Positions 16,797 to 62,800 of a stretch of 64,000 bases of DNA are shown one piece after another. Source of the stretch: a virus; IMG/VR virus record IMGVR_UViG_3300050821_003843, positions 8,918 to 72,917 of that record, one strand, 5' to 3'. Under the pieces are notes generated by a model. The model was not told the DNA's origin and ran no database searches. It was given only the letters and a program-made list of their open reading frames with translations. Position 1 is the stretch's first letter; each line of letters opens with the position of its first letter. Position numbers and translations under genes: made by a program.

Positions 16797-16882
16797 CCCT
16801 CTAACCGAGTTGCTAACTGCTGACCTAGTCTGATGGCATGTGGCAGGGTATTAAATGGACTTATTACAACTCGGTTAGGGGG
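16797..16882 (+). ncRNA. Putative structured RNA 2
   Basis: 16-bp closing stem CCCTCTAACCGAGTTG/CAACTCGGTTAGGGGG around a 54-nt interior. Confidence 0.5.
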
Positions 16883-16893
16883 TTTTGATAATG

Positions 16894-16939
16894 CCTCTCC
16901 GTGATTCTGGTTGTTTGTTCCTTCCCGCTTCACGGGGGA
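16894..16939 (+). ncRNA. Hairpin with loop antisense to the AAGGAACA RBS class
   Basis: TCTCCGTGA/TCACGGGGG stem with G-U pairs; GG/CC-closed loop TTGTTTGTTCCTT. Confidence 0.55.
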
Positions 16940-17189: not shown

Positions 17190-17229
17190 ATTTTCTTACT
17201 CCAACTCATGTTTTAGAAAGTGACACAAG

Positions 17230-30481: not shown

Positions 30482-32761
30482 ATGCCTAAAGCGATTGAAC
30501 GTGACACACTTCCAGCGGGGTTGAAGCCCTTTCGGTTCCACGGTCTTGATTTGAGTTATAAGGATGGTGATAAAAATGCAACGTGTCTGTGCCCATTTTG
30601 TGGTAAGGAAGGGAAGTTCACAATCCTTGCTGAGACGAGTCAATGGAGGTGTTTCAGTTGTAATGAGGGATTTGAGAAGAAGGACAACAATGGCCATGCG
30701 AAGTCGATCAAGGGTGGTAATGCTACGGAATTTCTACGTCTGTTGTGGAAATACTGTGATGCAGAACCTTGTGACTACACCGAATTGGTAAAGGATCGCA
30801 CATTACTCAGCCCAGTGATGTTGGTGCGTTGGGAGGTAGTCAAGTCATTTCTAACGGGTGAGTGGCTGATGCCCGCGTATAACATCAAGGGAGAACTGAT
30901 CCAACTCTATCGTTACGTGAATTGTAAAAACCCCAAAACAGGTGAGTGGAAACGTAAGTTGATTCCCACACCCGAAGTGGGTGGTCATGGATTATTCGGG
31001 ATGAGTGGATTCGACAGTAAGCGACCGATCATTGATGTGTTCGAATCATGGAACGGTGTGGTCTATGAGGAAGTGATTAGTCAGATTGGTATGAATGCTG
31101 AGACTGAGAAGTGGGAGGAGGTTGGTAAGTTCAAGGATTCGTTGGGGGCTGAACGAAATGTGATTGGCTTACCCGGTTGCGCTACGTTCGATTCGAAGTG
31201 GATGCCATTGTTTAAAGATCGTGTGGTCAACTTTTGGTTCGATAACGATCATCCCCAAGTGAATGAGCGAAATGGGCAATCAACAACGGGGGCGGGCTGG
31301 CTGTATTCGTGTCGTAATTCCAGCACACTTTTGAAGGTGGCGAAATCGGTACAGGTGTTAAAGTGGGGTGAGCAAGGTTTCGACCCCGAATTGACTTCGG
31401 GTTACGACGTTAGGGACGCTCTGAAGGCCCATAAATCGCTTTTGGGGCGTTCGGCGGCATTATTTGACCTAAAGGTCAAGTTACAAACCGTGGCCGCTAA
31501 CGAGGTCGTATCGAGCGCAAATTCGGCAGCGGGGGATGTGAATACCAAGCTACGACCGAAAACGTGTACCGACTTCAAAACACTGGTCAATTCGTGGAAG
31601 AAGCCGATGCGCTGGCGACAGGAGATGGAGGACGCTTTAGCGATCTGTCTAGCGGTGGGTTTGTCAACGGAACAGGTAGGGGACCAGTTGTTTCTGATGC
31701 TGATCGCTGACGCCGGGAGTGGAAAAACTTGTTTCTGTGATGCGTTACTTGTGGCGGAAAATAGTTACCCGGTTGAGAACGTGACAGGCTTGTATTCTGG
31801 CTGGCAGGGTGGTGGCTTCAGCCCATTGGAACGTATGAATCGTAAAATGTGGATTACAGCAGAGGGGGACACGGTTGTACAACATCCCGCATTTCCTCAA
31901 TTCATGTCACAAATTCGACGCGCATTCGATGGAAAGGGCCATGCCACATTCAAGAACTCGAAAGAGGATCAGTTATTCGATGGTCTTAGATTTACGTGGT
32001 TGCTGGCTGGTACACCAACAATGATTGACCTGATGAACAATCAAGCCTCATTGGGAGACCGGTTCCTCAAATTCTTTATCGGACAACCGGACGACGATGA
32101 GCGTCGACAGATACTCATGAGATCGGCTTACTCAGCAAAGCGGGCAGTACAAATCAAGTCGGGTGATGATGCAGAACATCAACTCGATCCAGCGTTGTGC
32201 GAGGCGTACCAGTTGACGGGAGGTTATCTCAATTGGCTTAGATCAAATACTGATCTACTCGCCAAAGTTGAAATGGATGATGAGCGATTGATGCAATGCG
32301 CTGACTTGGGAGAGTTCACGGCTTGCTTACGCGCTCGACCGGGTAAGACGAAAACCGATGAAGCCCACGATGCGAAGGAAATGCCCACACGTCTAACAAA
32401 ACAATTTGTACGGGTGGCGATGTGCCTTGCTGTGGTGTGCAATCGAGGGTCAGTCGATCAGCATATAATGGACCTAGTGCGAAAGTTGACACTCGATACG
32501 TCAATGGGGGTCACACTACAGATCGTGAAGCAACTCTATGCAAAAGGGAATGAGGGGTTGTCATACGGGGCACTGGCGCAACTGGTGAGTATGACGAATG
32601 ACAAAGTCAAATCCATGTTACGGTTTTTACACAAACTGAAAATCGTGGCATGGTACGAACCGATTGATGAGGAAACACAAAAGAAGTTACCTCACAAATG
32701 GCGAGTGACGAAACACATGGCGGAACTTTACAAATCTGTGATTGTTGATTGGGGACAATAA
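30482..32761 (+). CDS. Primase-helicase (Zn finger, TOPRIM-like, AAA+ P-loop)
   Basis: CPFC..CFSC, FDND, G.D.RD, ADAGSGKT, LGDRF. Confidence 0.75.
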   Translation: MPKAIERDTLPAGLKPFRFHGLDLSYKDGDKNATCLCPFCGKEGKFTILAETSQWRCFSCNEGFEKKDNNGHAKSIKGGNATEFLRLLWKYCDAEPCDYTELVKDRTLLSPVMLVRWEVVKSFLTGEWLMPAYNIKGELIQLYRYVNCKNPKTGEWKRKLIPTPEVGGHGLFGMSGFDSKRPIIDVFESWNGVVYEEVISQIGMNAETEKWEEVGKFKDSLGAERNVIGLPGCATFDSKWMPLFKDRVVNFWFDNDHPQVNERNGQSTTGAGWLYSCRNSSTLLKVAKSVQVLKWGEQGFDPELTSGYDVRDALKAHKSLLGRSAALFDLKVKLQTVAANEVVSSANSAAGDVNTKLRPKTCTDFKTLVNSWKKPMRWRQEMEDALAICLAVGLSTEQVGDQLFLMLIADAGSGKTCFCDALLVAENSYPVENVTGLYSGWQGGGFSPLERMNRKMWITAEGDTVVQHPAFPQFMSQIRRAFDGKGHATFKNSKEDQLFDGLRFTWLLAGTPTMIDLMNNQASLGDRFLKFFIGQPDDDERRQILMRSAYSAKRAVQIKSGDDAEHQLDPALCEAYQLTGGYLNWLRSNTDLLAKVEMDDERLMQCADLGEFTACLRARPGKTKTDEAHDAKEMPTRLTKQFVRVAMCLAVVCNRGSVDQHIMDLVRKLTLDTSMGVTLQIVKQLYAKGNEGLSYGALAQLVSMTNDKVKSMLRFLHKLKIVAWYEPIDEETQKKLPHKWRVTKHMAELYKSVIVDWGQ

Positions 32762-35129: not shown

Positions 35130-35714
35130 GTGGGAAATAAAGAACTTGCTATTCGTCCATTAACTGCTAGACAGAAAGCATTTGTTAGAGAGTATGTGCT
35201 TCTGAATGATGGAACGAAAGCAGCGATTAAAGCAGGGTACTCTAAAGGTCGTGCAAGTGATGAGGCTAGAGAGCTCTTACAACACCCTGCAATCAAGCGT
35301 GAACTCGGTAAAGCACGAGCACATCTAGCTAAACAGTATAAGTCTCAATTGGACTTGGCAATTGGCAGACTTGTGAGTTGTATCACTCGTGTGGGTAGTG
35401 ATTATGTGGATGAACAAGGGCGTCCCATACCTCTCCATCAACTCTCACAACGCGCTAATGAAGCAGTCGATGGGATTGAGGTAACTCAGTTTGAGGATAA
35501 GGCCGGTAACGTCCACACCAAGACCAAACTGAAGTTGATGCCTTTATCCTCAGGACTGGATATGGCATTCAAGATTCAAGGCAGTTATGCGCCTGACAAA
35601 CATCAAGTCGTGACAGCGAATGTGGACTTGAGTGATTTGTACGACAGACCTGAGAATGTGTTGGATGAGGATGTGATTGAACTCGAACCTGAAAGTGACA
35701 CACAAGATGAATGA
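35130..35714 (+). CDS. terS: Terminase small subunit
   Basis: LT.RQ..FV.EY....GT.AAI.AGYS...A...A..LL..P.I. Confidence 0.85.
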   Translation: MGNKELAIRPLTARQKAFVREYVLLNDGTKAAIKAGYSKGRASDEARELLQHPAIKRELGKARAHLAKQYKSQLDLAIGRLVSCITRVGSDYVDEQGRPIPLHQLSQRANEAVDGIEVTQFEDKAGNVHTKTKLKLMPLSSGLDMAFKIQGSYAPDKHQVVTANVDLSDLYDRPENVLDEDVIELEPESDTQDE

Positions 35715-36054: not shown

Positions 36055-36067
36055 GAAAGTGACACAG

Positions 36068-40190: not shown

Positions 40191-42691
40191 TGGAACAATC
40201 GAGTAACGGACATACAGACACGAATCAACAGCGTGCAGATGCGTTGAATAAATCTTTTCCATTCAGTGGTAGTCAACCAGTCAACAATGAGGATTATTCT
40301 GCAACGTCAATGGCCGATCAGTTAGTCGCCAATCACATCATGTCACGATTCAACTGGATGGCACAAATGTTGTTACCTGGTCGTGACATCTATAAAGAAT
40401 GTGGTTATCCTCCGTGTGGTGAGGCAATCCCCGCACAACTCTATCGTGACATGTACGACCGTGATGCCTTGAGCGCTCGTGTCGTGCAGGTATTACCAAA
40501 GGAATCATGGCAGGTACAGCCAGCGATCTATGAAGATGAAGACCCAGAAGTCGAAACAGCATTTGAAACAGCATGGCAGGAACTGCATCGTACACTGAGG
40601 GGTAATAGTCTGTATCAAGATGAACAGTGTTCTCCTATTTGGGATTACTTGTTACGGGCTGATATTCTGTCTGGTATTGGTCATTATGGCGTGTTGCTAC
40701 TCGGTATCGACGACGGCCAGCCCCTTGACCACCCACTTGAGGCATTCAGGGGTTTCGACTCACAACAACCCGGTACAGAGGGTTTACACGGTCCTGAACC
40801 ACTACGGGGCGATGCGCAAGGCTACGACACGTTCACCACGAAGCAACTTGATGAGCAGGGCGTGCCATCCTTTGCCACACCCGTTCCATTTAATGTGAAA
40901 TCAGCAACTAAAGACAGTACAGAGGAATCTGTTGGCGGTAAGGGCACAAGTAAACTTATCTATCTAAAGGTATTCGATGAAACGCTGGCACAAATCACTA
41001 GATATGAACGCGATCCACACAATCCAAGATTTGGCCTTCCCCAAATGTACCTACTCACGTTCAATGACCCGAGGAACGATCCTAGTGGTGGTGCTGGTCT
41101 GCCTGTTGCTTCTGCTCATTGTCACTGGTCACGTATCATTCACATTGCAGACAATACAGGCTCCAATGACGTCCTAGGCTACCCGAGAATGAAACAAGTG
41201 TTCAATCGCTTGTGGGACGCCTTTAAGACATATGGCGCATCAGGTGAGGGATTCTGGCAAATGGCTTTTGCCATGTTGTCATTGGAAACGAATCCCGCAT
41301 TAGGCGCTGACTTCAAAATAGACCAGGATGCATTAAGGGAACAATTACAGAAGTTGAGAAGTGGATTTCAACGTCACTTGGTTACCGCGGGGATGACAGC
41401 AAAAACACTGCCTCCCGCATTGAGTGACCCAACACCGTACATCAACATCTTCATTGAAGCAATTTGTATCTTTCTAGGCTGTCCTGTTCGTGTGTTTAAG
41501 GGGAGTGAGCGTGGTGAACTTGCTTCTACTCAGGATGACTCAAGTTGGAATGATAGGCTACGTCATCGACAGATATTCTATCTAACGCCGAAGATTTTAG
41601 TACCATTTATTGATCGTTTGATTACTGCTGGAGTGTTGCCTAAACCAAAAGGCTACTCGGTGGTGTGGCCAGACTTGGAAGCATTGTCGGATAAGGATCG
41701 TGCGACCATTGCACTACAGAGCACACAAGCCCTAGCAGCCTACATTGCTGGTCAGTGTGAAAACGCCATGACACTGTTGGACTTCTATGTCAACATCATG
41801 AAAATTCCACATGAACTAGCCGTACAGATTGTTGACTCAGCCCAAGCGGCACAAGATGCAGAAGAACAGCAGACGATTGAAGCAGAACCCACAATCGAGG
41901 AACAACAGGCACAGACAGACGCGAGTGTACCAACACATGAAAAAGAAGCAGCATTGACTGATGCTGGTGACACGCAAAATACAGAATTAGCGTTTAACAA
42001 CTGGGCTAAGTGGAATGCAGAACATCGTGGCAATGGCATTTCTGGTACGGCCATTCAACTCGGCGAGGTTGCCAAAGTTAAAAACACCAAAAAATCTCAT
42101 ATGGAGGCTGCTGAAGCGCACGATAAAGCCTCAAGTCAATTTCATAAGAGTGGCGATGAGAAACTTGCTAGGATGCATCATTTAGAAAAATGGAGACATA
42201 TAGATCACGTCAACAAAATGGACTCCATGCCAAAGAAAGATAAAATTAAAGGTGGCGTAGTCCATGTGACGGCTGAAAGGGCAATATCTCACACATTACA
42301 TGTAGGAAATGTAGAAGTTCCTAATGGTGAACTCAGTAAGATGGTTAAGTTACCATTAGAAGAGCATAAATTTGGCGGGGCGTCTATTGGTGAGCATGGT
42401 AATGGACACAATCATTTAAACTCGATGAAGACTCGTGCTACTTCTAAAGGTGTTCGAGACGCATTGATTGAACAGGGATGGCAACACACACATACGCACA
42501 ACCTACCTAGTGCCGCTGGTGGTAAGAACCATCAAGAGGGGTTTGTTAAAGGTGGTCATGTTCTAACAACTGTAGATGTCGGTTACGGAGACACAACCTT
42601 AAGAGTCAGTAAAAAACCAGCAGGGGTCCAAAATTATGACACAACACACGAGAAGGTATTAGCAGAACAAGATGGTGACACTCAAGAATAG
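40190..42691 (+). CDS. Portal protein (DUF1073-like) with His/Lys-rich C-terminal extension
   Basis: YDRD..A.RVV, FGLP..Y, HWSRIIH, P.R...GSERGELAS..D; position after terL. Confidence 0.85.
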   Translation: MEQSSNGHTDTNQQRADALNKSFPFSGSQPVNNEDYSATSMADQLVANHIMSRFNWMAQMLLPGRDIYKECGYPPCGEAIPAQLYRDMYDRDALSARVVQVLPKESWQVQPAIYEDEDPEVETAFETAWQELHRTLRGNSLYQDEQCSPIWDYLLRADILSGIGHYGVLLLGIDDGQPLDHPLEAFRGFDSQQPGTEGLHGPEPLRGDAQGYDTFTTKQLDEQGVPSFATPVPFNVKSATKDSTEESVGGKGTSKLIYLKVFDETLAQITRYERDPHNPRFGLPQMYLLTFNDPRNDPSGGAGLPVASAHCHWSRIIHIADNTGSNDVLGYPRMKQVFNRLWDAFKTYGASGEGFWQMAFAMLSLETNPALGADFKIDQDALREQLQKLRSGFQRHLVTAGMTAKTLPPALSDPTPYINIFIEAICIFLGCPVRVFKGSERGELASTQDDSSWNDRLRHRQIFYLTPKILVPFIDRLITAGVLPKPKGYSVVWPDLEALSDKDRATIALQSTQALAAYIAGQCENAMTLLDFYVNIMKIPHELAVQIVDSAQAAQDAEEQQTIEAEPTIEEQQAQTDASVPTHEKEAALTDAGDTQNTELAFNNWAKWNAEHRGNGISGTAIQLGEVAKVKNTKKSHMEAAEAHDKASSQFHKSGDEKLARMHHLEKWRHIDHVNKMDSMPKKDKIKGGVVHVTAERAISHTLHVGNVEVPNGELSKMVKLPLEEHKFGGASIGEHGNGHNHLNSMKTRATSKGVRDALIEQGWQHTHTHNLPSAAGGKNHQEGFVKGGHVLTTVDVGYGDTTLRVSKKPAGVQNYDTTHEKVLAEQDGDTQE

Positions 42692-42861: not shown

Positions 42862-45081
42862 ATGTCTCTACTGGTTGCCAAAAAACCTAAACGTACTACC
42901 TCGAATCCTCTCAAGTACGACCCAAGTGGTACAGGTCAGATCCGTCGTCAATTCATGCGACAGATAGAAGCCAAGTTCAAGGAACTGAATCGTCGTGTCT
43001 ACCAACGGTTAGTCAATGAACATCAGTATGGATTAACACAGAACTATGATCCAGCACAACCACGAGTACCAGCGGGTTCGCCAGAAGGTGGGGTTGTTTG
43101 GAGTGTCGTCATTAACAATGTGAAATCAGAGTTCTATGGTTGGAACTATGAGATCGTAGCAAATTCTCCATACGATTTCCCACAGTCAGAAAACTACCTG
43201 TCTCAGTTCAAACAATGGTTACTGAAGCAGATGAGTGAGTTGTTCTATAATGAGGATGAGAATTCATGGTGGAGGGAATATATTGCAAAGGGTTGGCAAC
43301 TTGGCGCAGCGAAGGTGTATAACGCTTGGAAATCACCAAGTGAGTTTCTCAAGTCATCGTTTAACGTACCTGTCTCGGTCAACAAGGTAAAACTCCTCGC
43401 AGCACGAGTATTCACAGAACTGGAAAACGTCACACAAGACATGGCAACTAAGATGAGTCGTGAACTTGTGGATGGATTGATTCAGGGCATGTCACCACGC
43501 GAAGTGGCTCGAAACATGTCGAAGTCGATCGAGGGGATCAGTAAAGCACGAGCGTTAGCGATTGCTCGCACGGAAGTTGTTAGATCGCACGCTAATGGAC
43601 AATTGGATACGTTAGAGCAACTGGGGATGCAGCATGTGGGCGTTGCAGTGGAGTGGTCAACATCCGGGTTAGGGATGACTAGAAAGAAGAACCCAAGTCC
43701 TTGCCCAATTTGCGCACCGATGCAAGGTGTGGTGTTCACGCTCGAAGAAGCTAGAGGTATGATCCCTAGACATCCAAATTGTCTTTGTTCCCTGATTCCG
43801 GCCAATGTAGGGGAGGACGGTAAGGGTCAAATTCGCTCGTTTAAAGGCGTGTCAGCGGCTTTAGGCAAAAGTGTCAGGGCTGAAATACCCAAGCGGTCAA
43901 AACGCACTGTAGCGACTCAGGCGAAGTTATCACGATGGGCAGGTGCAACGGCAAAGGTCAGTAAATCACGACCTGAATCAATTTTGAATATGGAACTGAT
44001 TGATAACCTGAATCCATACCACGATGCACAAGGGAGATTCTGTTCTAAAGAGAATGCTGTCAACTGGCATGAGATTAAATATCAACGTACAGAACCTATC
44101 TACACTCGCCCACAAAGTAAGCACGTAGACGAAGTGACTCACAAAGCGTTGATAGATGCGGAACTTGCCCAACAGGGCGGTGGTATTGCTGACAAAGCAA
44201 ATATGTTTCGAAGTGAGATGTCAAAGCACAATAAAGAACTCGAAGTGATTCGACAAAAACTTGTTAAGGACGTTGCTAGGCATGAACGTGAAATTGCAAA
44301 GCATGGTGCTGAATTCAAACGAATCCTTGATGAACATTCCAAAGCATCTAACGTTGATGAGAAAAAAGCAAATAAGTTGAATCGTCAAGGTATCGCATCT
44401 CACAACCGACTATCAAAAGCACGTGAGAAACTGGAGTATGCTAAGGTAGAGGCACGTAACGCACTACTCGACCACATCGGTACAAAAGATCCTGCCCCAG
44501 TCAAATTATGGGGATTGGCAGCGATGCCCGAATCGAGTGCCAAACGTGCATTAGAGGCTGCTGAGTGGTATGGGCAAATTTTATCGAAGAAGGTAGTGAG
44601 TCGACCAGACAAGGGCTATCACAGTATCGACGCTTATCCAATTGAGGATGGTCGTTCCTTTGCACAAAACAAGTCTCAGAGTAAAGTTGATTTTGGTGTT
44701 GATCATGAAATCCATATGGCACACCATGCAGCAGTGGATATTCACATCCATGAGATTGGACATACAATCGAATTTGCTAATCCTAAAATCAATGACATGA
44801 CATTAGGCTTTATTCACCATCGTGTTCAAGGCGAATTACCACAACCGTATCCATACGGTGATAAAGACGAAGTAGGATTTAAAGATGAGTTTGGTAAATC
44901 ATTTTCAGGGCATGCTAACGCAATCTATGTTGGAAAACACTACGCATCAGGCGCAACTGAGATTCTAGCTATGGGGTTTCAGAAGTTGTACAACAATCCG
45001 GGTGAATTCGCCCATAAAGATCCAGAGTATTTCAAATTCCTAATTGGTGTATTAAGGGGGGATTTCAGTGAAAGGAAATAA
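42862..45081 (+). CDS. MuF/SPP1 gp7-like head morphogenesis protein fused to a C-terminal zincin metallopeptidase
   Basis: RA..IARTE, CPIC, IP.HPNC.C; later HEIGH and EILAMG. Confidence 0.85.
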   Translation: MSLLVAKKPKRTTSNPLKYDPSGTGQIRRQFMRQIEAKFKELNRRVYQRLVNEHQYGLTQNYDPAQPRVPAGSPEGGVVWSVVINNVKSEFYGWNYEIVANSPYDFPQSENYLSQFKQWLLKQMSELFYNEDENSWWREYIAKGWQLGAAKVYNAWKSPSEFLKSSFNVPVSVNKVKLLAARVFTELENVTQDMATKMSRELVDGLIQGMSPREVARNMSKSIEGISKARALAIARTEVVRSHANGQLDTLEQLGMQHVGVAVEWSTSGLGMTRKKNPSPCPICAPMQGVVFTLEEARGMIPRHPNCLCSLIPANVGEDGKGQIRSFKGVSAALGKSVRAEIPKRSKRTVATQAKLSRWAGATAKVSKSRPESILNMELIDNLNPYHDAQGRFCSKENAVNWHEIKYQRTEPIYTRPQSKHVDEVTHKALIDAELAQQGGGIADKANMFRSEMSKHNKELEVIRQKLVKDVARHEREIAKHGAEFKRILDEHSKASNVDEKKANKLNRQGIASHNRLSKAREKLEYAKVEARNALLDHIGTKDPAPVKLWGLAAMPESSAKRALEAAEWYGQILSKKVVSRPDKGYHSIDAYPIEDGRSFAQNKSQSKVDFGVDHEIHMAHHAAVDIHIHEIGHTIEFANPKINDMTLGFIHHRVQGELPQPYPYGDKDEVGFKDEFGKSFSGHANAIYVGKHYASGATEILAMGFQKLYNNPGEFAHKDPEYFKFLIGVLRGDFSERK

Positions 45082-45325: not shown

Positions 45326-45344
45326 CATGAAAGAAAGTTGACAC

Positions 45345-46295: not shown

Positions 46296-46355
46296 CGGTT
46301 CGCCGTAGTTTTTACAGACAGCTATTTCAACCGCCCGAAGTTACCTGTATCACTG

Positions 46356-46390
46356 GACCCCTAGTAGCTATTTTGCTCTGGGGGTTTTTT
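46356..46390 (+). terminator. Intrinsic terminator-like hairpin
   Basis: GACCCCTAG..CTGGGGGTT stem followed by a U6 run. Confidence 0.6.
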
Positions 46391-46391
46391 C

Positions 46392-49256
46392 GTGCAGATA
46401 CACAATTCAAATCCTGAAGGTCACAATCAGTATTCCAATGTGTCTAAAGTTGCCGCTAAAGACCATATCCATGATACTGGCAAAAATGGGGTGGTTAGTT
46501 ATCTAGTAAACAAGCCAGATAGTTATTACCACAGAAAAACCGGCACGTTAGAGGCAGTTAGAGGGGGTCGACTGCGTTTATTGATGCAGACTGAAGATAA
46601 GCACGGCAACAAAACTCAAACATCTTGGCACTTCTATCCACATGAATTGACACTTCACAAAGTCACTCCAATTACAAATCGAGAATTACCACAATTAGAA
46701 TATCTTGTACAGAACCTGTCTAATGCCAAGTATAGACATGAGACGCTAAACGGTCGTAAACACATCGTTGTCCCCATGACGATGATTGTTCCCGGAGTTC
46801 TCAACGGTTCTAAGGGTTCTTTATTTTACCCCGAAGAGGAAGTTGGTAAAGATCCAACACCTTGGAACGGGATGCCGATTACCGTCTATCACCCGATTCG
46901 TAACGGGAAGAACGTCAGCGCTAAGACTGACGGTATTCTCGATGAACAAGGGATAGGTGAAGTTCGCAAAGCCAAGACCGATGGTAAACTCCGTGCAGAA
47001 GCGTGGATTGACATCGACAAAGCGAATAAGGTTGACCCACGTGTGATTCAAAATATCCAACGTGGTTTACCAACCGAAATCTCGACTGGGCTCTATACCA
47101 AAAACTCGCCAGCGCCCAAGGGGTCACACCACAACGGCAAACCCTACGAATGGATTGCTCGTGAGTATAGACCTGACCACTTGGCGATTCTACCTGACCA
47201 AAAAGGAGCATGTAGTGTGAATGACGGTTGTGGATTGGGCGTGAATGCTGAAGTAGATGAAGAGCCAATTGACAACGATTGGGCTAAATCATTGTTCCCA
47301 ACAGGGGAGAAGGAGTTTGTCTTGAAGCGGTTAGAAACTAATTCCAACCCAGAGGGGCATAATCAGTGGACGCATGGTGGTGTAACTGTCCATTTTTCTG
47401 GTGACACCTTCAAAGCTAAAGCATCTTTGAAAGACAAGGGCTTTAAATACGATGGTGACAATAAGAGATGGAGTAAAGATTTCGTAAAGGGACAGCATCC
47501 ATTACATGTAAATTCACTCCATGATGCCAAAGGCAACTTTCAAGACACGCCAGAAGGTATGCATAAGACAATCAAGTATCTTGCCAAGTCAGATAAAGTT
47601 CACATGGAATTGGAGCATCATCCAGTGTCAAATCAAGAACTAGAAATTAACTCATTCTCAGATTACAAGTGTTCTGGCGCTGAATGCAAGATGAAGTCTG
47701 AAACGGCTAACGCTCACTCAGAACTCGCAGATAAGACCGAACGTGAGAGTGACCATGCGAAAGCTGCGAGGATGCATCAAGATGCCAGTGCAGCATACAT
47801 GAGTCACGAATCAGGTGCGAAGGTTGATAAAGCAGCAGAGCACAGTACAAAAGCCGCAGAACATGCTGAAAAGGCTGGTACTAGCTTTGTGTCGTACAAC
47901 GAAGAACACGAAGAAGTTGAGAATGGTGGTCCAGGTAGTGGCCCACATCCACATATTGCTCTAGCTGTAGCTCATGCAAGAACTGCTTTGAACTACACTA
48001 GCGGACATCATACTGATAGTGACGTCTATGGTGCTCGTCTAAAAAATGCTAAATCAGGAGTCAGCCTTTCTGAAGTCGCTCAAACAGCCTCTCATTCAGC
48101 CCTAAAAGATAAAACTAGCTTGGGACACGACAAAGCAGCTTATGCGCATAATGAGGCAATGCAGACACATTCAAAAGCAATGGTTTTGCATGCCGATTCT
48201 GGTGCAGGCCACAAAGAAGCCTATCTTGCTCATGAAAAAGCCAGAGATTCACATTCGATTATGAAAAAATTCCATAGAGGTGCTTCTGCTTCACTGTCAC
48301 ACAATTCACAGGAACCAGATATGGATTTTGCAAATAACGGTGGACCCGGATCAGGACCACATCCCGGACAGATACACTCAATCAGTCATTTAGCTAATGA
48401 GAAATCTACGGCGGCTGATAATGCAACAAACAAGTTCAGAGCTAATTCTTCTATTGCAAATAAGCAAACAGCAATAGAGCACCACCAGACCGCGTTGTCT
48501 CTTCATAAGATGTCAAAAGAAGGACATAAGGAACTTGGTAATAAAGGATTGAGGGAACATCATTCTGCACAGGTTCTTCATCACACAAAACAACTCGCAT
48601 ACTTGTCAAAAGCTCCAACAAACAATTCCGACGATCCTGAAGGTTCGTCATTTAACTCCAATGAAGAAGGAGAAACTATGGCGAAACTGACGGCCAATCA
48701 ACGAAGTCAGATTATCAACAAACTCACGTCAGACAAGGGGTGTGGTTGCTATACGGCAAACGATGCTGATTATCTGCAATCACAATCTGATGAACGACTG
48801 AACGAACTTGCTATCAATGCTGAAGAGCATTTGACACACAATGAAGAAAGGGAAGAGCCAGTGGCTAAGGTAATGACAGCACAAGAATACATGGACGCAG
48901 CCCCACCAGAAATCCAGCAGATCATTGCAAATGCGGCTGAGATCATGCGTACCGAAAAGGCTGGCATCATTGCCAAGCTGGTGGCAAACATCAGTGACGC
49001 AGCGAAGAAAGCATCAATGACCACGATGCTAGAATCGAAGACGTTACCAGAAGTTAAAACCTATGCCGAACTGGCTGAATTGGCTGCGCCTAAGCCTGTC
49101 GAAAATACGCGACGTACTGTCTATGGTCCATTGGGTAATACTCCAATCGTGACGGATAATGCTGGTAAGGATACCGATGCCGAAGAAATGACTCCATCAC
49201 GATTCGATTGGAATGAAGTGGCACGGATTCCCGGCTTGGCAACCTCCAAGAACTGA
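46392..49256 (+). CDS. Prohead protease (DUF2213-like) polyprotein with inserted modules and C-terminal scaffold
   Basis: W.G.PIT..HP, EISTG, PDHLAILP...GACS..DGCG; repeated SNPEGHNQ and GGPGSGPHP modules. Confidence 0.8.
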   Translation: MQIHNSNPEGHNQYSNVSKVAAKDHIHDTGKNGVVSYLVNKPDSYYHRKTGTLEAVRGGRLRLLMQTEDKHGNKTQTSWHFYPHELTLHKVTPITNRELPQLEYLVQNLSNAKYRHETLNGRKHIVVPMTMIVPGVLNGSKGSLFYPEEEVGKDPTPWNGMPITVYHPIRNGKNVSAKTDGILDEQGIGEVRKAKTDGKLRAEAWIDIDKANKVDPRVIQNIQRGLPTEISTGLYTKNSPAPKGSHHNGKPYEWIAREYRPDHLAILPDQKGACSVNDGCGLGVNAEVDEEPIDNDWAKSLFPTGEKEFVLKRLETNSNPEGHNQWTHGGVTVHFSGDTFKAKASLKDKGFKYDGDNKRWSKDFVKGQHPLHVNSLHDAKGNFQDTPEGMHKTIKYLAKSDKVHMELEHHPVSNQELEINSFSDYKCSGAECKMKSETANAHSELADKTERESDHAKAARMHQDASAAYMSHESGAKVDKAAEHSTKAAEHAEKAGTSFVSYNEEHEEVENGGPGSGPHPHIALAVAHARTALNYTSGHHTDSDVYGARLKNAKSGVSLSEVAQTASHSALKDKTSLGHDKAAYAHNEAMQTHSKAMVLHADSGAGHKEAYLAHEKARDSHSIMKKFHRGASASLSHNSQEPDMDFANNGGPGSGPHPGQIHSISHLANEKSTAADNATNKFRANSSIANKQTAIEHHQTALSLHKMSKEGHKELGNKGLREHHSAQVLHHTKQLAYLSKAPTNNSDDPEGSSFNSNEEGETMAKLTANQRSQIINKLTSDKGCGCYTANDADYLQSQSDERLNELAINAEEHLTHNEEREEPVAKVMTAQEYMDAAPPEIQQIIANAAEIMRTEKAGIIAKLVANISDAAKKASMTTMLESKTLPEVKTYAELAELAAPKPVENTRRTVYGPLGNTPIVTDNAGKDTDAEEMTPSRFDWNEVARIPGLATSKN
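48678..49256 (+). CDS. Nested in-frame scaffold protein
   Basis: Internal AAGGAG-N5-ATG; helical and acidic; typical nested-scaffold position. Confidence 0.5.
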   Translation: MAKLTANQRSQIINKLTSDKGCGCYTANDADYLQSQSDERLNELAINAEEHLTHNEEREEPVAKVMTAQEYMDAAPPEIQQIIANAAEIMRTEKAGIIAKLVANISDAAKKASMTTMLESKTLPEVKTYAELAELAAPKPVENTRRTVYGPLGNTPIVTDNAGKDTDAEEMTPSRFDWNEVARIPGLATSKN

Positions 49257-49305: not shown

Positions 49306-49800
49306 ATGAAGGGTGCTGAAATCCTTATCAATGGGAATCAACCTAATGGGCGATTTCTTGAAGGTACTGTGAGTGGTACGCCTGCGCCGGGTACGTGTAT
49401 GGAGGTTCTGCCAGCCACGGAACCCGTCAATGGTCGATTTACTTATCGCGCGTGTACGTCTGGTAGTAACGGTGATTCACGACCGACAACGGTGCTACTC
49501 GAAGACGCACTACAAGGCGTGACCCCGGATATCAATGGTGCAAATACCTACGTTAATGGAGCACGGTGCTTCCTCTATGTCCCTGTACCGGGGGATGAAC
49601 TGAACATGCTGGTGGAAAACATTAGTGGTACTGGAGACAGTCACGCGATTGGTGACTTACTCATGATTGACCGTGCTACAGCCGGTAATCATGGAAAGTT
49701 GCTGGTCCAAGACTCGGCCGGTCATAGTGCCCCATTTACATGTATGGAAACGAGTACGGGACTGACTGTTGATACTTTGCTGGCTTGTCGATTCGGCTGA
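49306..49800 (+). CDS. Head decoration (cement) protein
   Basis: PG, ED.LQG, PGD..N.L and GD.L motifs; between scaffold and MCP. Confidence 0.7.
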   Translation: MKGAEILINGNQPNGRFLEGTVSGTPAPGTCMEVLPATEPVNGRFTYRACTSGSNGDSRPTTVLLEDALQGVTPDINGANTYVNGARCFLYVPVPGDELNMLVENISGTGDSHAIGDLLMIDRATAGNHGKLLVQDSAGHSAPFTCMETSTGLTVDTLLACRFG

Positions 49801-49852
49801 TTCCTTTGCGGGTTGACCGCAGTAAATTTCTCAATCCCTTAGGAGGTGTATT

Positions 49853-51088
49853 ATTCTAACCCAAGACTTTATTTTGAATGGGGAAACTCATGGTGAGTTT
49901 GCCGAACTGTTGCCAGGACTGCGATTTGACGTGGGTATGATGAAGCCCTTTTTCGACTCACGCAATCAACGGTGTGTAGTTGTGAATAGTGGTCGTAAGG
50001 TGTATTCTGAAACTTTGAAAGAATACGTCCCGATCTACGAAAAGAAACTCATCAAGGATCTAGTTGCGAATGGCATCGAATCACCAGTCTTCAACGATAC
50101 TACCTTGCGTAAGCAGGAATGGATTGAGTTGGATAAGGTGATTCTCCGTGCTGCACGATATCGGTTGCGAGCATGGGCAGACCTTGCGGCGCAATCGTCA
50201 TTCGGCGGATTCGACGGTATGTCGAAAATGGTTCTCGAACACGAAACCATGTCAGATCCCGGTGAAGCAGTTCAGGATATGGATGGCTTGGCGGATGGTC
50301 GTGCGGATACACCACGTTACCAACTGCAAGGCTTGCCACTACCAATTACCCATGCAGACTTTTGGTATTCCAAACGTCGCCTGATGTTGTCACGCAACAC
50401 GGGTACGCCATTGGACACCACGATGGGTGAGTCTGCTAGTCGTCGTGTAGCAGAAATGATTGAACGTAGCCTCATTGGTAACTCCACGGGGATTACCTAT
50501 GGTGGAGCTAACAATCCAAGTTATGGTCGTACATCCACGGTGTATGGTTATACGAACTTCCCCGCTCGATTGACGTACTCAGCAGCCCATGCGCCAACAG
50601 AAGGTTCATGGACTCCTGCGACGCTATTGGCTGACGTATTGGCCGTGAAGCAGTTGTTGATTAACAACAAATTCTATGGTCCATACATGATGTACACGTC
50701 AACGGATTGGGACAAGTATCTCGACAACGATTACTACGTCAGCATCACGTCGGGGGCAGTGGCACCAACCAAAACCTTGCGTGAGCGATTACGTGAGATT
50801 GATGGGATTCAAGACGTACGTCGTTTGGATCTGTTCTTCGCCAGTGCTCCAACGGCTGGTGGTCCAGGATATGCGAACTTGGGTTTGACCCTCAATCCAT
50901 TCACGTTCATTCTGGTACAGATGACACCAGATGTTGCCCGTGCGGTGAATGGTATGGATATCAGTACCATTCAATGGGAATCTCACGGTGGATTGAGATT
51001 GAACTTCAAGGTTCTGGCAATTCAGGTTCCACAACTCCGTGCTGACTATTACAACAACTGTGGGATCGCCCAAGCCACGGTAACTTGA
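49853..51088 (+). CDS. Major capsid protein (HK97 fold, linocin/encapsulin-like), probable AUU start
   Basis: TLR..EW..LD, PLPI.H.D, R.VAE..E, YGYTNFP, YGPY; perfect AGGAGGT 5 nt before ATT 49853. Confidence 0.88.
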   Translation: MLTQDFILNGETHGEFAELLPGLRFDVGMMKPFFDSRNQRCVVVNSGRKVYSETLKEYVPIYEKKLIKDLVANGIESPVFNDTTLRKQEWIELDKVILRAARYRLRAWADLAAQSSFGGFDGMSKMVLEHETMSDPGEAVQDMDGLADGRADTPRYQLQGLPLPITHADFWYSKRRLMLSRNTGTPLDTTMGESASRRVAEMIERSLIGNSTGITYGGANNPSYGRTSTVYGYTNFPARLTYSAAHAPTEGSWTPATLLADVLAVKQLLINNKFYGPYMMYTSTDWDKYLDNDYYVSITSGAVAPTKTLRERLREIDGIQDVRRLDLFFASAPTAGGPGYANLGLTLNPFTFILVQMTPDVARAVNGMDISTIQWESHGGLRLNFKVLAIQVPQLRADYYNNCGIAQATVT

Positions 51089-51139
51089 TCGAGTGTGCTT
51101 CTATGAAAGAAGACATATGTGGATGACTAGGAGAATGTA

Positions 51140-51340
51140 ATGAAAGAAAAGAAACTGAAAACAGACGCCAATGTAGTTGTAAGGAAGTTCAAATGTCTTG
51201 CAACTCACACGGAAATCAAGACTGATGAAGACGGGGATGAGACTCAAATCGACTATAAGATCGGTGATATCATCGAATCTCCAGTCGATTTGGTTAAACA
51301 ATTCCCCGGCAAGTTTGAGTTGGTAGAGGATAAGAAGTGA
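51140..51340 (+). CDS. Small head-associated protein
   Basis: Y..GD..ES..DL...F..KF motif, echoed in 51636-52130. Confidence 0.5.
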   Translation: MKEKKLKTDANVVVRKFKCLATHTEIKTDEDGDETQIDYKIGDIIESPVDLVKQFPGKFELVEDKK

Positions 51341-51516
51341 TGTCCAAACTCGTTTCCATCATGACGTTGTTCTGTGTCTTACTTGTGATGGTCCAAGCCG
51401 TTCAGGCACGTCATCATAAGCACAAACACCGTACCAGCGTGTACGTGACAACCGTTGCCCCTGTCGTGACGACACACACGACAACCACTTCGATTCGTAC
51501 GATGCGAATTCGATAG
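51340..51516 (+). CDS. Small secreted peptide (not in ORF track)
   Basis: Sec-type signal ending AVQA, then RHHKHKHR and a Thr-rich tail. Confidence 0.5.
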   Translation: MSKLVSIMTLFCVLLVMVQAVQARHHKHKHRTSVYVTTVAPVVTTHTTTTSIRTMRIR

Positions 51517-51532
51517 CTTGCCGTCCCAGCGC

Positions 51533-51595
51533 AGCCACTGACCTTTAAGCAAGGGCTTTGTGTCAACTTTCACCTAAGCTTAGGGGTCAGTGGTT
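51533..51595 (+). ncRNA. Long hairpin with loop antisense to the GAAAG(T)TGACAC RBS class
   Basis: 18-bp stem with G-U pairs; AGG/CCT-closed loop GCTTTGTGTCAACTTTCA. Confidence 0.6.
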
Positions 51596-51635
51596 TTCTA
51601 ACAATGAAATGTGACAAATACACTAAGGATTCAAA

Positions 51636-52130
51636 ATGACAGCTACTATGCAACGTCCTATTCCTCACAATGTCGAAGGTCGTCCCCTCTACAAGTTCCG
51701 CTGTAACATTGGTCAATGTGTGGCCGTGAACAAACTGGGTGAAGCAATGATGTACGATCAAGGCCAACGAATTGAAACCCCTACGCATCTCACTAAGAGA
51801 TTCGGTCAGGAAAAATTTACTCGCCTGAGTGATAGTGATCCAGTTGATGAGGGTCGATTGTTCGTGGCAGAAATGGACGCTAAAGCCCTTGAAGATCTGA
51901 ACAAGGATGATACAAACGAGTATCGTCATCACACGCCAGAAGCCCCACCATCTCCATTCGATGAGGATCGGGAATCGGGTATCGCGGCAACTTATAAGAG
52001 TATGTCGATTGATGACCTGACGAAGATTGCTCGTGATGAGGAGATTCCTTTGGGTACTGCCAAAACCAAGAAGGACATCATCAACAAGATCATGGATCAT
52101 AACAACTTGGCAGCGCCACAAAACCAATAA
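51636..52130 (+). CDS. Head-associated protein with C-terminal Rho_N/HeH-like domain
   Basis: MSI.DL..IA....I......K.DII..I. Confidence 0.6.
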   Translation: MTATMQRPIPHNVEGRPLYKFRCNIGQCVAVNKLGEAMMYDQGQRIETPTHLTKRFGQEKFTRLSDSDPVDEGRLFVAEMDAKALEDLNKDDTNEYRHHTPEAPPSPFDEDRESGIAATYKSMSIDDLTKIARDEEIPLGTAKTKKDIINKIMDHNNLAAPQNQ

Positions 52131-52168
52131 TTTGGTTATTCGCTCCGCAAAACCAGTGAGGTTCGTTG

Positions 52169-52561
52169 ATGTCACGTACCAGTCCCACAGCAGTACAGAA
52201 CATCCTTGGCACAGAATACGACGTGACGAATCGTCCATCACTCAATGGATTCATCGACACGGCCTCAGCAGACGTAGATGACGTATTGGCTAATGATGTT
52301 CAAGGATTGATGACACCCAATAGGCTGGAACTTATTGAACGTTGGCTGGCGGCACACTACTACCAGATTAGTGACCCCGGATATAAGTCAAGGACGACAG
52401 CGGGGGCAAGTGGTTCGTTCAATGGGGAAACCACAATGGTATTTATGTCAACTCGGTACGGTCAACAGGCATGCGCAATAGATTCTACTGGTTGGCTGGC
52501 GAAACGAAGTGATGAAGTCACTAAGGGTTCACGTCGAATGGTCCAGTTCTTTGTAGGATAA
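52169..52561 (+). CDS. Head-tail adaptor
   Basis: IE.WLAAH, ST.YGQ.A...D..G.L. Confidence 0.7.
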   Translation: MSRTSPTAVQNILGTEYDVTNRPSLNGFIDTASADVDDVLANDVQGLMTPNRLELIERWLAAHYYQISDPGYKSRTTAGASGSFNGETTMVFMSTRYGQQACAIDSTGWLAKRSDEVTKGSRRMVQFFVG

Positions 52562-52566
52562 CAATT

Positions 52567-52917
52567 ATGAATCGTCGATCATTTGTTGGTTTGTGTGTGT
52601 CTGCTATTGCTATGCTTCCATTGACTGGCTTAGCAAGTACTCCGGATAAGATGAAATTAACAATCCATCACGAACCAGAACATGGATGGACTAGAGTTAC
52701 TGGTTCTTTTGAAGCCAAAAAGAAATTCCATCATGTCTGGCAAACCAAACTTTGGCCAGAATGGCAACAGCATATGCGTCCAATGGAAGAACGAACTTCT
52801 TTTCTATGGAACATGATGGAAGGCTATGATGCTTTGTTTTCAACGCGATCAAAAGAGTGTGCTAGTGCTCTTGAGTTTGCGATTAAAAATTGTGGTTGTG
52901 TAATCACAGTTATCTAA
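52567..52917 (+). CDS. Tat-signal protein
   Basis: MNRRSF followed by a hydrophobic stretch. Confidence 0.55.
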   Translation: MNRRSFVGLCVSAIAMLPLTGLASTPDKMKLTIHHEPEHGWTRVTGSFEAKKKFHHVWQTKLWPEWQQHMRPMEERTSFLWNMMEGYDALFSTRSKECASALEFAIKNCGCVITVI

Positions 52918-53296: not shown

Positions 53297-53740
53297 ATGG
53301 AAGTCAAACTTGATCTACTGGGTAGTGACAGTCTCAAAAAGAAGTTGTTAGCGATTGCGCAAAAGTATGGTCAACCCGATCAAGTCAGCGTGACAGTTGG
53401 GTTTACTCAACGCTATGCAATCTACGTACACGAGGTACAAGCGAAACACGTAGTCGGTCAATGGAAGTACCTTGAAACACCCGCTAGAGGGATGACTCGA
53501 CAAACTTGCCGCACGATTGAAACAGCATTACGTAGAGGAGCTCCTATGCTCCAAGCCCTGATGCTGGCAGGACTGGGGATTCAACGTGCTGCACAGATAC
53601 TGACGCCAGTCGATACAAGTGCACTAAAAGCAAGCGCCTTTACCTGCCCGACACAAGATGTAGAGTCAGTCAGTCAAGCGGCTTTTCAAACATCAGAACA
53701 GATTCGACTCGCCCAACAGAGTACAAAACCTAATCCATAG
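53297..53740 (+). CDS. Neck protein (HK97 gp10-like)
   Basis: YAIYVHE, KYLE.P, PVDT..L..S. Confidence 0.7.
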   Translation: MEVKLDLLGSDSLKKKLLAIAQKYGQPDQVSVTVGFTQRYAIYVHEVQAKHVVGQWKYLETPARGMTRQTCRTIETALRRGAPMLQALMLAGLGIQRAAQILTPVDTSALKASAFTCPTQDVESVSQAAFQTSEQIRLAQQSTKPNP

Positions 53741-53750
53741 AAAGTGACAA

Positions 53751-54164: not shown

Positions 54165-54183
54165 TTAAGAAAGTGACACAAAC

Positions 54184-54501: not shown

Positions 54502-54539
54502 TTGAGTATCTCGTTATTCAGAAAAAGAAAGTTGACAAA

Positions 54540-56258: not shown

Positions 56259-56753
56259 ATGTGGAAATCTTACTTATTGGACTATTCTTCGGGTTTGTGG
56301 CAGGCGTCACTACTGCTGTTGCTATTGCCGCTCTCGTCGAATACACGCGCAAATGAGCCAATCTTTAAACCAACTGGCATCTATGCTGAAAAGTCACTTG
56401 CTGAACAATTTGTGGAAAGGATAGATGCTGTAAAAAAGTATCAAGAAAAAGAAGCTAAGAACGTCCCTCTAACAAGTATCGACCAATCACTTGGACCACA
56501 GTCAAGAAGACCAAAAGAAAATTATCACGCCTATAGTCCTTGGTATGTTGATGGACACAACACTTCAGACAGTCACTTGATCCATACGCACGGGGTGAGT
56601 CCTGAAACACTCAAGGGATTAACTCAAGATGAAAAGAATCGACTTCATGGGAAGATGCACGGTGAACAGGCTCGCGTATCAATGCCAATCGTTCGACAGA
56701 CACAATCAGGCGGATGCCCCAATGGCGTTTGCCCCTTAAATCGAAGGAGATGA
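56259..56753 (+). CDS. Secreted protein with His-rich motif and GGCPNGVCP tail
   Basis: Signal-like LLLLLLP; HL...HG ... LH...H. Confidence 0.5.
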   Translation: MWKSYLLDYSSGLWQASLLLLLLPLSSNTRANEPIFKPTGIYAEKSLAEQFVERIDAVKKYQEKEAKNVPLTSIDQSLGPQSRRPKENYHAYSPWYVDGHNTSDSHLIHTHGVSPETLKGLTQDEKNRLHGKMHGEQARVSMPIVRQTQSGGCPNGVCPLNRRR

Positions 56754-57088
56754 AAGTGACAGATCCAACTCCAACTCCATCAGGTACGGGTAACGGTGGC
56801 GTTAGTCCAGTAGCGTTCTGGTCCGCGATTATCACGTTACTCGGTAGTACGATTATTCTACCAATGTGGCAAATGTGGTTGTCTAATCAACACGAAATCA
56901 ATCGAGCGGAACAGGCAAAGGCAACCACAGTCGCCGTTGCGAAGGTACTTGACAATCAAGAACAGACGCATGAAGCCATCAAGGAAGTTTCCATGAAACA
57001 AACTGAGGCTGCTGAAAAAGTAGAAGAAGTTAAAGCGGCAACAAACGTTTTAGTAGATAAAGTTGACACAGCAAAGGGAAACAAATGA
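56750..57088 (+). CDS. TM plus coiled-coil protein
   Basis: One TM segment; EV..KQ..AAEKV.EV shared with 57311-57835. Confidence 0.55.
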   Translation: MKVTDPTPTPSGTGNGGVSPVAFWSAIITLLGSTIILPMWQMWLSNQHEINRAEQAKATTVAVAKVLDNQEQTHEAIKEVSMKQTEAAEKVEEVKAATNVLVDKVDTAKGNK

Positions 57089-58571: not shown

Positions 58572-60182
58572 ATGCCAGTTGCCACACTAATTCCAGCGAT
58601 CTTACCAAATGGTACTCCACCATTATTGGCCGCACCAACTGTACCTACAGTCAATGGGCAGTATTGGTCGTGGAGTACTAGTCTGAACTCGTTCGTTGTT
58701 ACGAATCCTCCCGTCTCACCAGCTTGGGGGTCGATCACAGGCACTCTGAGTAATCAGACTGACTTACAGAATGCGTTGAATGCAAAAGCAAATAGTTCTG
58801 CAATTTCTGCTGTTGGCTTCAGTGGTGCCTATTCTGATTTGAGTGGAAAACCTTCTCTTGCAGCAGTTGCAACATCCGGAGCCTATTCCGATCTGAGTGG
58901 AAAACCAACATTAGGCTCACTCGCTGCCGTGAGCAATCTCACAGGTCCGGTGACATCGACAGGCGCAGCAACAGCTATTGCCAATGGTGCAATCAGTAAT
59001 GCGATGTTGGCGAATGGGGCAGTAGCGAATCTATCTGGTACGAATACAGGTGACCAGAATCTTGCACTCTATGCACTTCTCTCAGGTGCGACATTTACCG
59101 GCGAAGTGGCAATCAACAGCGGCACAATCACCACAAACATTCCAGCATTAAGTATTACGCAGACTTGGAACAATTCAGCCACGACATTTGACGCTCCACT
59201 GCTGGTGAATGTCACCAATACGGCAAGTGCGTCCGGTTCGCTGTTGATGGATTTGCAGGTTGGTGGGACGCCACAATTCAGTGTTGATAAAGCTGGGAAT
59301 CTCGCCCTAACAGGCGGATTAAAACTCGTCAATGGCACAGCAAATATCACAAGCCCATTTGCAGCAGCATTTACACTGGCACTTGGGAACAGTTCTTCCA
59401 AGATGTATTCGCCGGGTACGTTGGGGATGACTGTCGGAACTGGTGGTGATGGCTCATTTGGAATAGGTAACTCGCTTGAAGGAACACCGACAACGGCATA
59501 TCTGTATGTGCCAGCAAATAACATCTTAGCAATGCAGAATGGTGCAAATGCACAAGAAGCCCGTTGGTACGAAACCTACACGTCGAGTACATCCTACGGC
59601 CGATTCGTCATCCGTACAGCGGCTGGCAATTACACGATTGGCAGTGAGCAAGGTTCAGGCGGTGGGACTGCAAGAGGGGTAAATATCCAGTCGGCTGGTG
59701 TGACTGCGATTGCGATTGACACGAGTCAGAACGTTGTAATCAATGCTGGGGGTCTAGCGTTATCGGGCTATCCTAAGGCTTTCAATCTTCAGACTGGTTC
59801 AAATAGCTATATGTACAGTGACGGCACAAATAATAGCTATTATTGTGACGGTACACATTATTTTTCAACTCCGGCAGGGTATGGAAAAAGCAATGTAGAT
59901 GCGGGTCAATTCCGCCCATCAGCAACTCAAACAGTCGTCAGCGGAGCAACAAGCGGCAACGCAACATTCAGTCAGCCGTTCGCAGGTACGTCCTACAAAC
60001 GTGTCGTCATCTATTGCAATGCTTTACTTGGGGCAGCAAGTTACACGTTCCCTGTTGCATTCACCAATACGCCCGAAGTGCTGAGTCAATCACTTGGTGG
60101 AATTGTGACGACGGTTAGCAGTACCGCAGTCACCGTGACAGGCACGACATCAACGGGTTTCATCGAACTTTCAGGATATTGA
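58572..60182 (+). CDS. Fibre/receptor-binding-like protein
   Basis: WG.ITGTLS.QTDLQ.AL.AK; [11 protein letters not shown] twice; Gly/Thr/Ser-rich; TFP.AF...P C-terminus. Confidence 0.7.
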
Positions 60183-62742: not shown

Positions 62743-62800
62743 TCAGTGGATAGTGACCCAAGGATGGGATTTTCTTTACTTATGAAAGTTGACACGAACA

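Follow-up and report, generated by a model that had tools for sequence, protein, structure and literature searches.

In a 64,000-nucleotide stretch of viral DNA (bases 8918-72917 of the IMG/VR record IMGVR_UViG_3300050821_003843, called the window below), we found a long hairpin 3' of the major capsid protein gene that carries in its open loop the exact reverse complement of a 12-nt motif, GAAAGTTGACAC, which recurs just before start codons of the same genome. In its general form, GAAAGT(T)GACAC(A), this motif behaves as the ribosome-binding region of about eleven genes, to judge from its placement, and we refer to it as the tag and to these genes as tagged. We tentatively favour a reading in which a terminator-type hairpin on the capsid mRNA pairs through its loop with the tagged start regions and would lower their translation as the capsid mRNA accumulates. 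If the pairing is real, about a tenth of the phage genes would be coordinated by one short loop on the most abundant late message. The source record is 72,917 bp long, has direct terminal repeats and is rated 100% complete in IMG/VR; we found no cultured phage close to this soil phage.

The hairpin and the start motif

When 51520-51610 was folded as the + strand with RNAfold, 51534-51550 paired with 51578-51594 in 17 pairs including G-U, so that the hairpin described in the earlier note is present with a stem slightly shorter than the 18 bp claimed for it. Above the main stem, a 3-bp extension joins 51552-54 with 51573-75. The minimum free energy is -35 kcal/mol (z -4.47), and none of 200 shuffles gave an equally good fold. 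On the minus strand the fold reaches -27.5 kcal/mol (z -1.72) and 11 of 200 shuffles are as good; because this fold is weaker, the + strand is favoured for the hairpin RNA, in agreement with the assignment that the earlier note had drawn from the G-U pairs. The hairpin is one of three long intergenic hairpins in the window. The best Rfam match at its position has an E value of 9.3 and is meaningless, the only match in the window at the gathering score being a tRNA elsewhere. The parts of the hairpin and its immediate 3' flank are as follows.

51534..51550, + strand: 5' arm of the hairpin (RNAfold; inverted repeat I8)
51555..51572, + strand: 18-nt apical loop, GCTTTGTGTCAACTTTCA (= GCUUUGUGUCAACUUUCA) (RNAfold)
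51560..51571, + strand: anti-motif, the exact reverse complement of GAAAGTTGACAC, inside the apical loop
51578..51594, + strand: 3' arm of the hairpin (RNAfold; inverted repeat I8)
51594..51599, + strand: TTTTCT, a short U-tract directly 3' of the stem, whose first T may pair
51606..51618, + strand: GAAATGTGACAAA, a motif-like stretch of the leader of the 164-aa gene, matching the motif at GAAA and TGACA only

The loop has the sequence that had been attributed to it and is accessible as well as specific to the + strand: the unpaired probability is at least 0.9 at 13 of its 18 bases, and four bases take part in a tiny 2-bp helix.

The exact 12-mer GAAAGTTGACAC occurs on the + strand at 32481, 45333 and 62784 and on the minus strand at 51571-51560, that is, in the loop; written backwards as a control, it has no match. 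Across the whole genome, the pattern GAAAGT{1,2}GACA has 11 copies on the + strand and one on the minus strand. Nine of the 11 + strand copies end 0-5 nt 5' of an ATG that opens an open reading frame (ORF), eight of these lying in the window and one 1246 nt before it. The copies in the window, with two T residues (TT form) or one (T form), are given below together with the predicted energies of their duplexes with the loop, followed by the exact copy that lies away from a gene start.

17216..17226, + strand: T form, 3 nt before ATG 17230; duplex -17.2 kcal/mol with a bulge
35691..35701, + strand: T form, 5 nt before ATG 35707; duplex -17.4 kcal/mol
36055..36065, + strand: T form, 2 nt before ATG 36068; duplex -17.4 kcal/mol
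45333..45344, + strand: TT form, directly before ATG 45345 (133-aa ORF); 13 nt complementary to the loop; duplex -20.2 kcal/mol
53740..53750, + strand: T form with A as last base (one mismatch), directly before ATG 53751; duplex -11.2 kcal/mol
54169..54179, + strand: T form, 4 nt before ATG 54184; duplex -17.2 kcal/mol
54527..54538, + strand: TT form with A as last base (one mismatch), 1 nt before ATG 54540; duplex -15.9 kcal/mol
62784..62795, + strand: TT form, 5 nt before ATG 62801; 13-nt match with the preceding T; duplex -22.3 kcal/mol
32481..32492, + strand: exact motif inside a 759-aa ORF, away from its start; an in-frame ATG (32504) follows 11 nt later

The earlier note had listed all of these start-adjoining sites, and at each the motif does stand next to an ATG; the two further sites that it named, 27801 (GTTGACATG) and 33698 (GAAAGTGACg), are partial matches only. 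Weaker versions of the motif precede ATG 27809, ATG 33715 and one gene that lies within the first 9 kb of the genome. The enrichment at starts that the earlier note had called for is present: GAAAGT{1,2}GA[CT] was found in the 22 nt before the candidate start of 12 of 119 ORFs, a count that includes one doubtful minus-strand ORF on the hairpin itself, compared with 0.28% of random 22-nt windows. Often the motif adjoins the upstream stop codon or shares bases with it (TAG-AAAG, TAA-GAAAG), as at 53740, where the first G is the last base of that codon, and the tagged genes have no other Shine-Dalgarno (SD)-like element. For these two reasons the tag behaves as an extended ribosome-binding region. 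Its TGACAC half does not appear to be an ordinary SD element, and only the GAAAG part could be an SD variant. In PHROG scans of ten tagged genes, a single one could be named; it encodes a thymidylate synthase and has a partial tag. A further class of starts is marked by AAGGAAC(A), which stands before 14 of the 119 ORFs, mainly minus-strand early genes.

Some occurrences of the motif stand in other relations to a start codon. The stretch 32481-32506 (+) could be an internal start that yields an 85-aa C-terminal product of the 759-aa ORF. At 56744-56762 (+), AAGGAG is followed immediately by ATGAAAGTGACAG, in which motif-like letters would encode M K V T from a possible start onward; this motif copy, at 56752, overlaps the ATG on its 5' side. 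Motif-like letters also serve as first codons at 39604 (ATGAAAGTTGAC).

We also considered the motif as a promoter element, with TTGACA as a -35 box or the motif as a -10-like box. This was rejected because the tag ends 0-5 nt before the ATG and a transcript would start inside the ORF. That the motif might be read by a phage or host protein as double-stranded DNA in either orientation, its hairpin copy being one more binding site, for example for a roadblock or a regulator where the operon ends, strikes us as very unlikely. A single reverse copy among many forward ones would be permissible for such a site, and the authors who described extended start-associated repeats in Cluster K mycobacteriophages, to which we return below, take those repeats as DNA-binding sites (PMC3203893). 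However, the immediate proximity of the copies to ATG codons and their frequent overlap with a stop codon in packed operons fit a translation signal, 10 of 11 strict copies share one orientation, and the spacing would leave no room for a promoter role. The reverse copy, moreover, sits precisely in the single-stranded loop of a strand-specific RNA hairpin.

It is highly improbable, in our view, that the loop copy is the ribosome site of a small minus-strand gene. A frame is open there with the motif at its 5' end (51573-51379, 64 aa from a GTG, or 57 aa from the TTG at 51552), but the neighbouring genes are all on the + strand and the minus-strand form of the hairpin is the less stable. All nine tagged starts use ATG, whereas this frame offers only a GTG that overlaps the motif or a TTG, and it runs antisense to a 58-aa + strand ORF, which gave no homologue in its own search.

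The complementarity of the loop was assessed by comparing every + strand k-mer with the 22 nt before all candidate starts, after removing four doubtful ORFs and excluding positions opposite minus-strand start regions. No + strand position other than the loop has a complement common to more than one gene at k=11 (three genes) or k=12 (two genes). For k=10, the loop (three genes) ties with 62355 and 38059 (coding), with a second hairpin at 16914 and with three positions in the early region, on its non-coding strand. Under a first-order Markov model, 0.008 copies of the anti-12-mer are expected on the + strand, which makes a full-length match in an 18-nt loop unlikely by chance. The loop complement, TGAAAGTTGACACAAAGC, extends at several sites to the bases that flank the core (GACACA, GACACAAA). 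When the true starts are used, 8 of 11 tagged start regions form predicted duplexes of -15.9 to -22.3 kcal/mol with the loop, compared with -7.7 to -9.6 kcal/mol for three untagged ones; with the TT form, pairing is contiguous over 11-13 bases.

The end of the capsid gene block and other elements of the window

Nearly all genes from window position 8000 on are carried by the + strand, and the hairpin lies in this part, between the following genes.

40190-42691: portal gene, upstream of the hairpin
42862-45081: MuF-like gene, upstream of the hairpin
46392-49256: gene of a 954-aa head protein, upstream of the hairpin
49874..51088, + strand: major capsid protein gene (phrog_771 virion structural protein, Pfam DUF6260)
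51140..51340, + strand: 66-aa ORF P0121, 3' of the capsid gene (ORF list, translation)
51340..51516, + strand: putative 58-aa ORF with a hydrophobic N-terminus, its start overlapping the preceding stop; the last ORF before the hairpin
51636..52130, + strand: 164-aa gene P0122, 3' of the hairpin, with AAGGA at 51625-51629

By tblastn, the major capsid protein shares 31% identity with its annotated counterpart in Brevundimonas phages, and a search with it returned 1983 homologues. A homologue search with the 58-aa ORF gave no match, and the C-terminal part of P0122 has weak PHROG matches. P0121 and P0122, which flank the hairpin, have a short stretch in common (8 of 17 residues identical, E 0.002 over 17 aa, a weak similarity); by eye, both are similar to the post-capsid gene of two relatives (L005 and L008), and they may be paralogues.

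The hairpin begins 18 nt downstream of the ORF that closes the capsid block, is followed by the TTTTCT tail and has on the + strand the stable, G+C-containing stem of an intrinsic terminator. A promoter scan found no sigma-70-like site before it, and we therefore read the hairpin as part of the capsid mRNA and not as a separate small RNA (sRNA) gene. The trans-acting sRNA that the earlier note proposed is not supported as a separate gene, and the position and TTTTCT tail of the hairpin are like those of a terminator at the end of an operon. Elsewhere on the + strand, a canonical intrinsic terminator with a G+C-rich stem of about 10 bp and six U residues (46351-46390) stands directly before the gene of the 954-aa head protein. 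Another terminator-like element with a large loop is found at 16794-16885 (+), just before the second hairpin at 16894. Its 54-nt loop is structured, its stem is a 19-nt inverted repeat of 89% complementarity, and GGGGGTTTT follows it.

Three further elements were noted in other parts of the window. A tRNA-like sequence of 106 nt at 16977-17082 (+) scores 40 bits against the Rfam tRNA model; its acceptor, D and T arms are normal, and its middle part is over-long. ARAGORN calls no tRNA in the window. The divergent region between leftward early genes and rightward genes holds a long, very stable hairpin at 7931-8001 (+), with a stem of 14 perfect pairs that can be lengthened to about 24 (171 nt folded, -48.5 kcal/mol, z -4.5). 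On the minus strand, extended -10 boxes of the TGTATAAT type recur at about 3692-3720, 4394-4421 and 5173-5200, in the common context 'aacgccgtta...gtgtataat' and upstream of minus-strand early genes, and are probably early promoters for the host polymerase.

The proposed loop pairing and the readings that compete with it

In the reading that we favour, the + strand stem-loop would close the capsid transcription unit as a hairpin of the intrinsic-terminator type or as one that protects the 3' end. It would have no promoter of its own and would be made as the 3' end, or as a trimmed fragment, of the abundant late capsid mRNA. Its large open loop would then pair in vivo with the tagged start regions, forming a duplex that reaches from the GAAAG element to the start codon and could keep the 30S subunit off, and translation of the tagged genes would drop once the capsid mRNA accumulates. 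We infer repression in preference to activation because this duplex would cover the whole stretch from GAAAG to the start codon.

Several results weigh against this reading. The first concerns pairing energy. A ranking of the duplexes between loop and leaders, a check suggested in the earlier note, placed start regions no better than random windows. With the 28-nt loop region, -16 kcal/mol or lower was reached by 5 of 119 start regions and 120 of 3000 random genome windows, and -18 kcal/mol or lower by 3 of 119 and 41 of 3000, in a ranking that used longest-ORF starts and so missed four tagged sites. The T form, which is the commoner of the two, pairs only with a bulge (six plus up to nine pairs around one bulged A). 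The anti-motif 10-mer also occurs inside a coding region at 62355, and the 10/11-nt core was present in 54 of 400 simulated genomes, so that a match to the core alone is unremarkable. The tagged genes, in addition, are dispersed over the replication, small-gene and structural regions, so that no clear temporal logic is apparent.

Other points in the same direction concern termination. The loop is far from the short one of about 3-8 nt that is expected of an intrinsic terminator, with 27 nt between the main arms and 18 nt in the apical loop, and a terminator consensus scan (loop 3-8) did not include the hairpin in its list. The TTTTCT tract is shorter than the U6 of the terminator at 46351-46390. 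Contigs from a soil metatranscriptome library (X1), in which parts of the late region are represented, match 48.6-51.7 kb at an identity of at least 99%, and one of them bridges the hairpin without a single difference (50872-51714), so that termination would be incomplete, with some read-through, if this contig is RNA. The library consists of assembled contigs that show neither ends nor strand, and uncovered stretches such as 52005-52671 are uninformative on termination.

The relatives that could be compared point the same way. The capsid homologues P0001-P0007 from the protein search are 90, 85, 82, 80, 78, 77 and 76% identical, and the relatives that were compared at the DNA level have a capsid identity of at most 64%. 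A blastn search of 49800-52200 against GenBank phages gave no match. Scanning with the capsid protein found one locus in IMG/VR, at 59% identity, and two in JGI metagenome contigs, both G+C-rich and with another gene organisation. With a profile, 111 stretches of IMG/VR were matched; relatives are encoded in 84 of these, and 80 loci were retained (best identity 64%). In 11 related records within this limit of capsid identity, the counts of the motif are at control level. None of the five relatives analysed as whole records has a private recurrent start 10-mer (at most four genes share one, and it is SD-based), and these five use ordinary AAGGAG-type sites. A two-copy gapped motif pattern was found in four IMG/VR stretches, two of which are distant capsid relatives that have their copies in coding sequence. 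Given that relatives at 64% capsid identity or less are without the motif, the tag appears to be specific to the present lineage.

Much of this would also fit a plain terminator or mRNA-stabilising stem-loop whose loop match is a functionless coincidence, selected from among many inspected windows and loops, and we regard this as a serious possibility, if short of a probable one. The position, strand preference and TTTTCT tail of the hairpin are all as expected of such an element, as are the lack of enrichment in the duplex ranking and the ease with which core matches arise. Relatives also have strong post-capsid hairpins without the motif. From the 80 related loci, 29 with a complete downstream flank were selected by hand; in 8 of these, the 90-nt window of highest stability among the 700 nt after the capsid gene starts at most 15 nt from the stop codon, and several of these windows are textbook terminators with long stems followed by U runs. 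This habit of the family also suits the favoured reading, in which the hairpin is of the terminator type. About 250,000 windows had been inspected, and 1-in-1000 events are therefore to be expected somewhere. Yet the full 12-mer, with its expectation of 0.008 on the strand, falls inside the 18-nt open loop of a long intergenic hairpin, its complementarity reaches the flanks of the consensus, a second loop mirrors another start motif, and the same layout is found in Cluster K1 mycobacteriophages. If the match is nevertheless coincidental, the element is an ordinary operon-end hairpin, and the private start motif stays of interest.

The bridging contig is also what would be expected if the loop acted in cis in read-through transcripts, pairing with GAAATGTGACAAA (51606-51618) or with tagged starts 2-3 kb downstream; such pairing would tune the next gene or genes, or form a pseudoknot that modulates termination. 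The motif-like sequence 12 nt 3' of the stem and the tagged starts at 53751, 54184 and 54540, downstream on the same strand, would suit this arrangement. We think it very improbable all the same: the duplex between loop and leader is weak (-9.7 kcal/mol) and off the expected register, and the AAGGA ribosome site of the next gene lies outside the pairing.

The second loop just mentioned belongs to a smaller hairpin near 16894, which the earlier note had combined with the present one into a two-address code of loops and ribosome-binding sites.

16897..16937, + strand: second hairpin, with an 8-bp stem (16897-16904 with 16930-16937) and the loop 16905-16929

This hairpin exists, and TTTGTTCCTT, which is complementary to the other start motif, AAGGAACAAA, lies at 16914-16923 in its loop. 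The stability of the hairpin does not, however, exceed that of shuffled sequences (z -0.05), and the 10-mer TTTGTTCCTT recurs in a coding region at 38059. The second hairpin adds slight weight to the case for loop pairing; it does not establish a two-address code, which we have downgraded.

Comparison with known systems

Loops of 3-8 nt and longer U-tracts are typical of canonical terminators, and the one at 46351-46390 in this genome conforms to that pattern. The sRNAs that derive from 3' untranslated regions (3'UTRs) share the terminator of their mRNA and act in trans by pairing near ribosome sites, and their seed usually lies upstream of the terminator and not in its loop. As in Rho-independent terminators and 3'UTR-derived sRNAs, the hairpin described here combines a stable stem with U residues at the end of an operon; unlike canonical terminators, it has an oversized loop and a short U-tract.

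The closest parallel to the tag itself is found in Cluster K mycobacteriophages, which are described as having 13-bp start-associated sequences (SAS) 3-7 bp before the start codons of 11-19 genes (Pope et al. 2011, PMC3203893). According to the same source, each K1 phage has one reverse SAS copy that is not linked to a gene start, and a 2024 paper still calls the role of the SAS unknown (PMC11373665). We located the K1 reverse copies from GenBank records; they may also be listed in Figures S3/S4 of Pope et al. and in Table S3 of a 2025 paper. In Anaya, the reverse copy is found between gp96 and gp97, where a two-tier hairpin carries it in its apical loop of 10 nt (L089:34850-34895, record 59849-59894, with equivalents in L091 and L092). 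The 121-nt Anaya fold as a whole, with z -0.68, is unexceptional for that G+C-rich genome. This anti-SAS hairpin has an invariant inner stem and loop in Adephagia and CrimD and an internal loop that varies; one change in the outer stem among these phages turns a G-U pair into G-C. A late transcription start of Adephagia has been reported between genes 92 and 93 (PMC11373665), the same intergenic region that holds the anti-SAS hairpin of K1 phages. In the right 41 kb of Pixie (K3), which has many SAS, we found no convincing reverse copy, which speaks against generality. The SAS literature that we found does not link the reverse copy to an RNA.

The likeness between the two systems extends to several particulars. 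Both have a private, asymmetric, recurrent motif of 11-13 nt a few nt before starts (11-19 copies in Cluster K, about 11 here), with a strong preference for ATG and with an SD-like part joined to conserved bases beyond those that pair with 16S rRNA, and in both the upstream stop codon often falls inside the motif. The copies keep one orientation except for a single reverse copy, which in Anaya and here is not at a gene start and lies in a hairpin loop. The differences make the present motif an analogue of the SAS and not a member: the consensus is GGGATAGGAGCCC in Cluster K and GAAAGT(T)GACAC here, the phage family and host differ, and SAS are confined to non-structural genes whereas tagged genes here are found in the structural region as well. 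The K1 anti-SAS hairpin, furthermore, is in the region of the late transcription start, while the hairpin here is at the 3' end of the capsid unit.

By this analogy, phages with private start tags might in general encode the mirror of the tag in the open hairpin loop of a late, abundant transcript, as a genome-wide switch directed against ribosome-binding sites, a proposal that we consider possible rather than probable. The hairpin RNA of K1 phages would in that case come from the late transcription start region. If true, the proposal would explain the SAS of mycobacteriophages and would define multi-target viral riboregulators that are built into terminators or leaders. The K1 mycobacteriophages with the same layout are genetically tractable, in contrast to a soil phage without a known host.

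Besides the SAS papers, the literature that we found concerns single-target antisense RNAs (c4 and sar) and holds no multi-target mirror of a private start tag in an operon-end hairpin. The c4 antisense RNA of P1 and P7 is described as a processed 77-nt RNA with loop sequences complementary to the place where ribosomes bind a phage mRNA, whose translation it blocks; it targets a single operon (ant) and governs immunity (PMC12197685). The hairpin has no Rfam match to C4 or to another family. Like c4, it is a phage-encoded structured RNA with a loop complementary to a ribosome-binding region, and it presents an exact complement of 12-13 nt in a largely unpaired loop; unlike c4, it stands at the end of an operon and has a loop that would address about 11 genes in scattered positions. 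Start-associated motifs and antisense loops that mask ribosome sites are thus both already known, and what appears to be new, as a candidate put forward from sequence comparison, is their combination into a multi-target mirror carried by the hairpin at the end of an operon.

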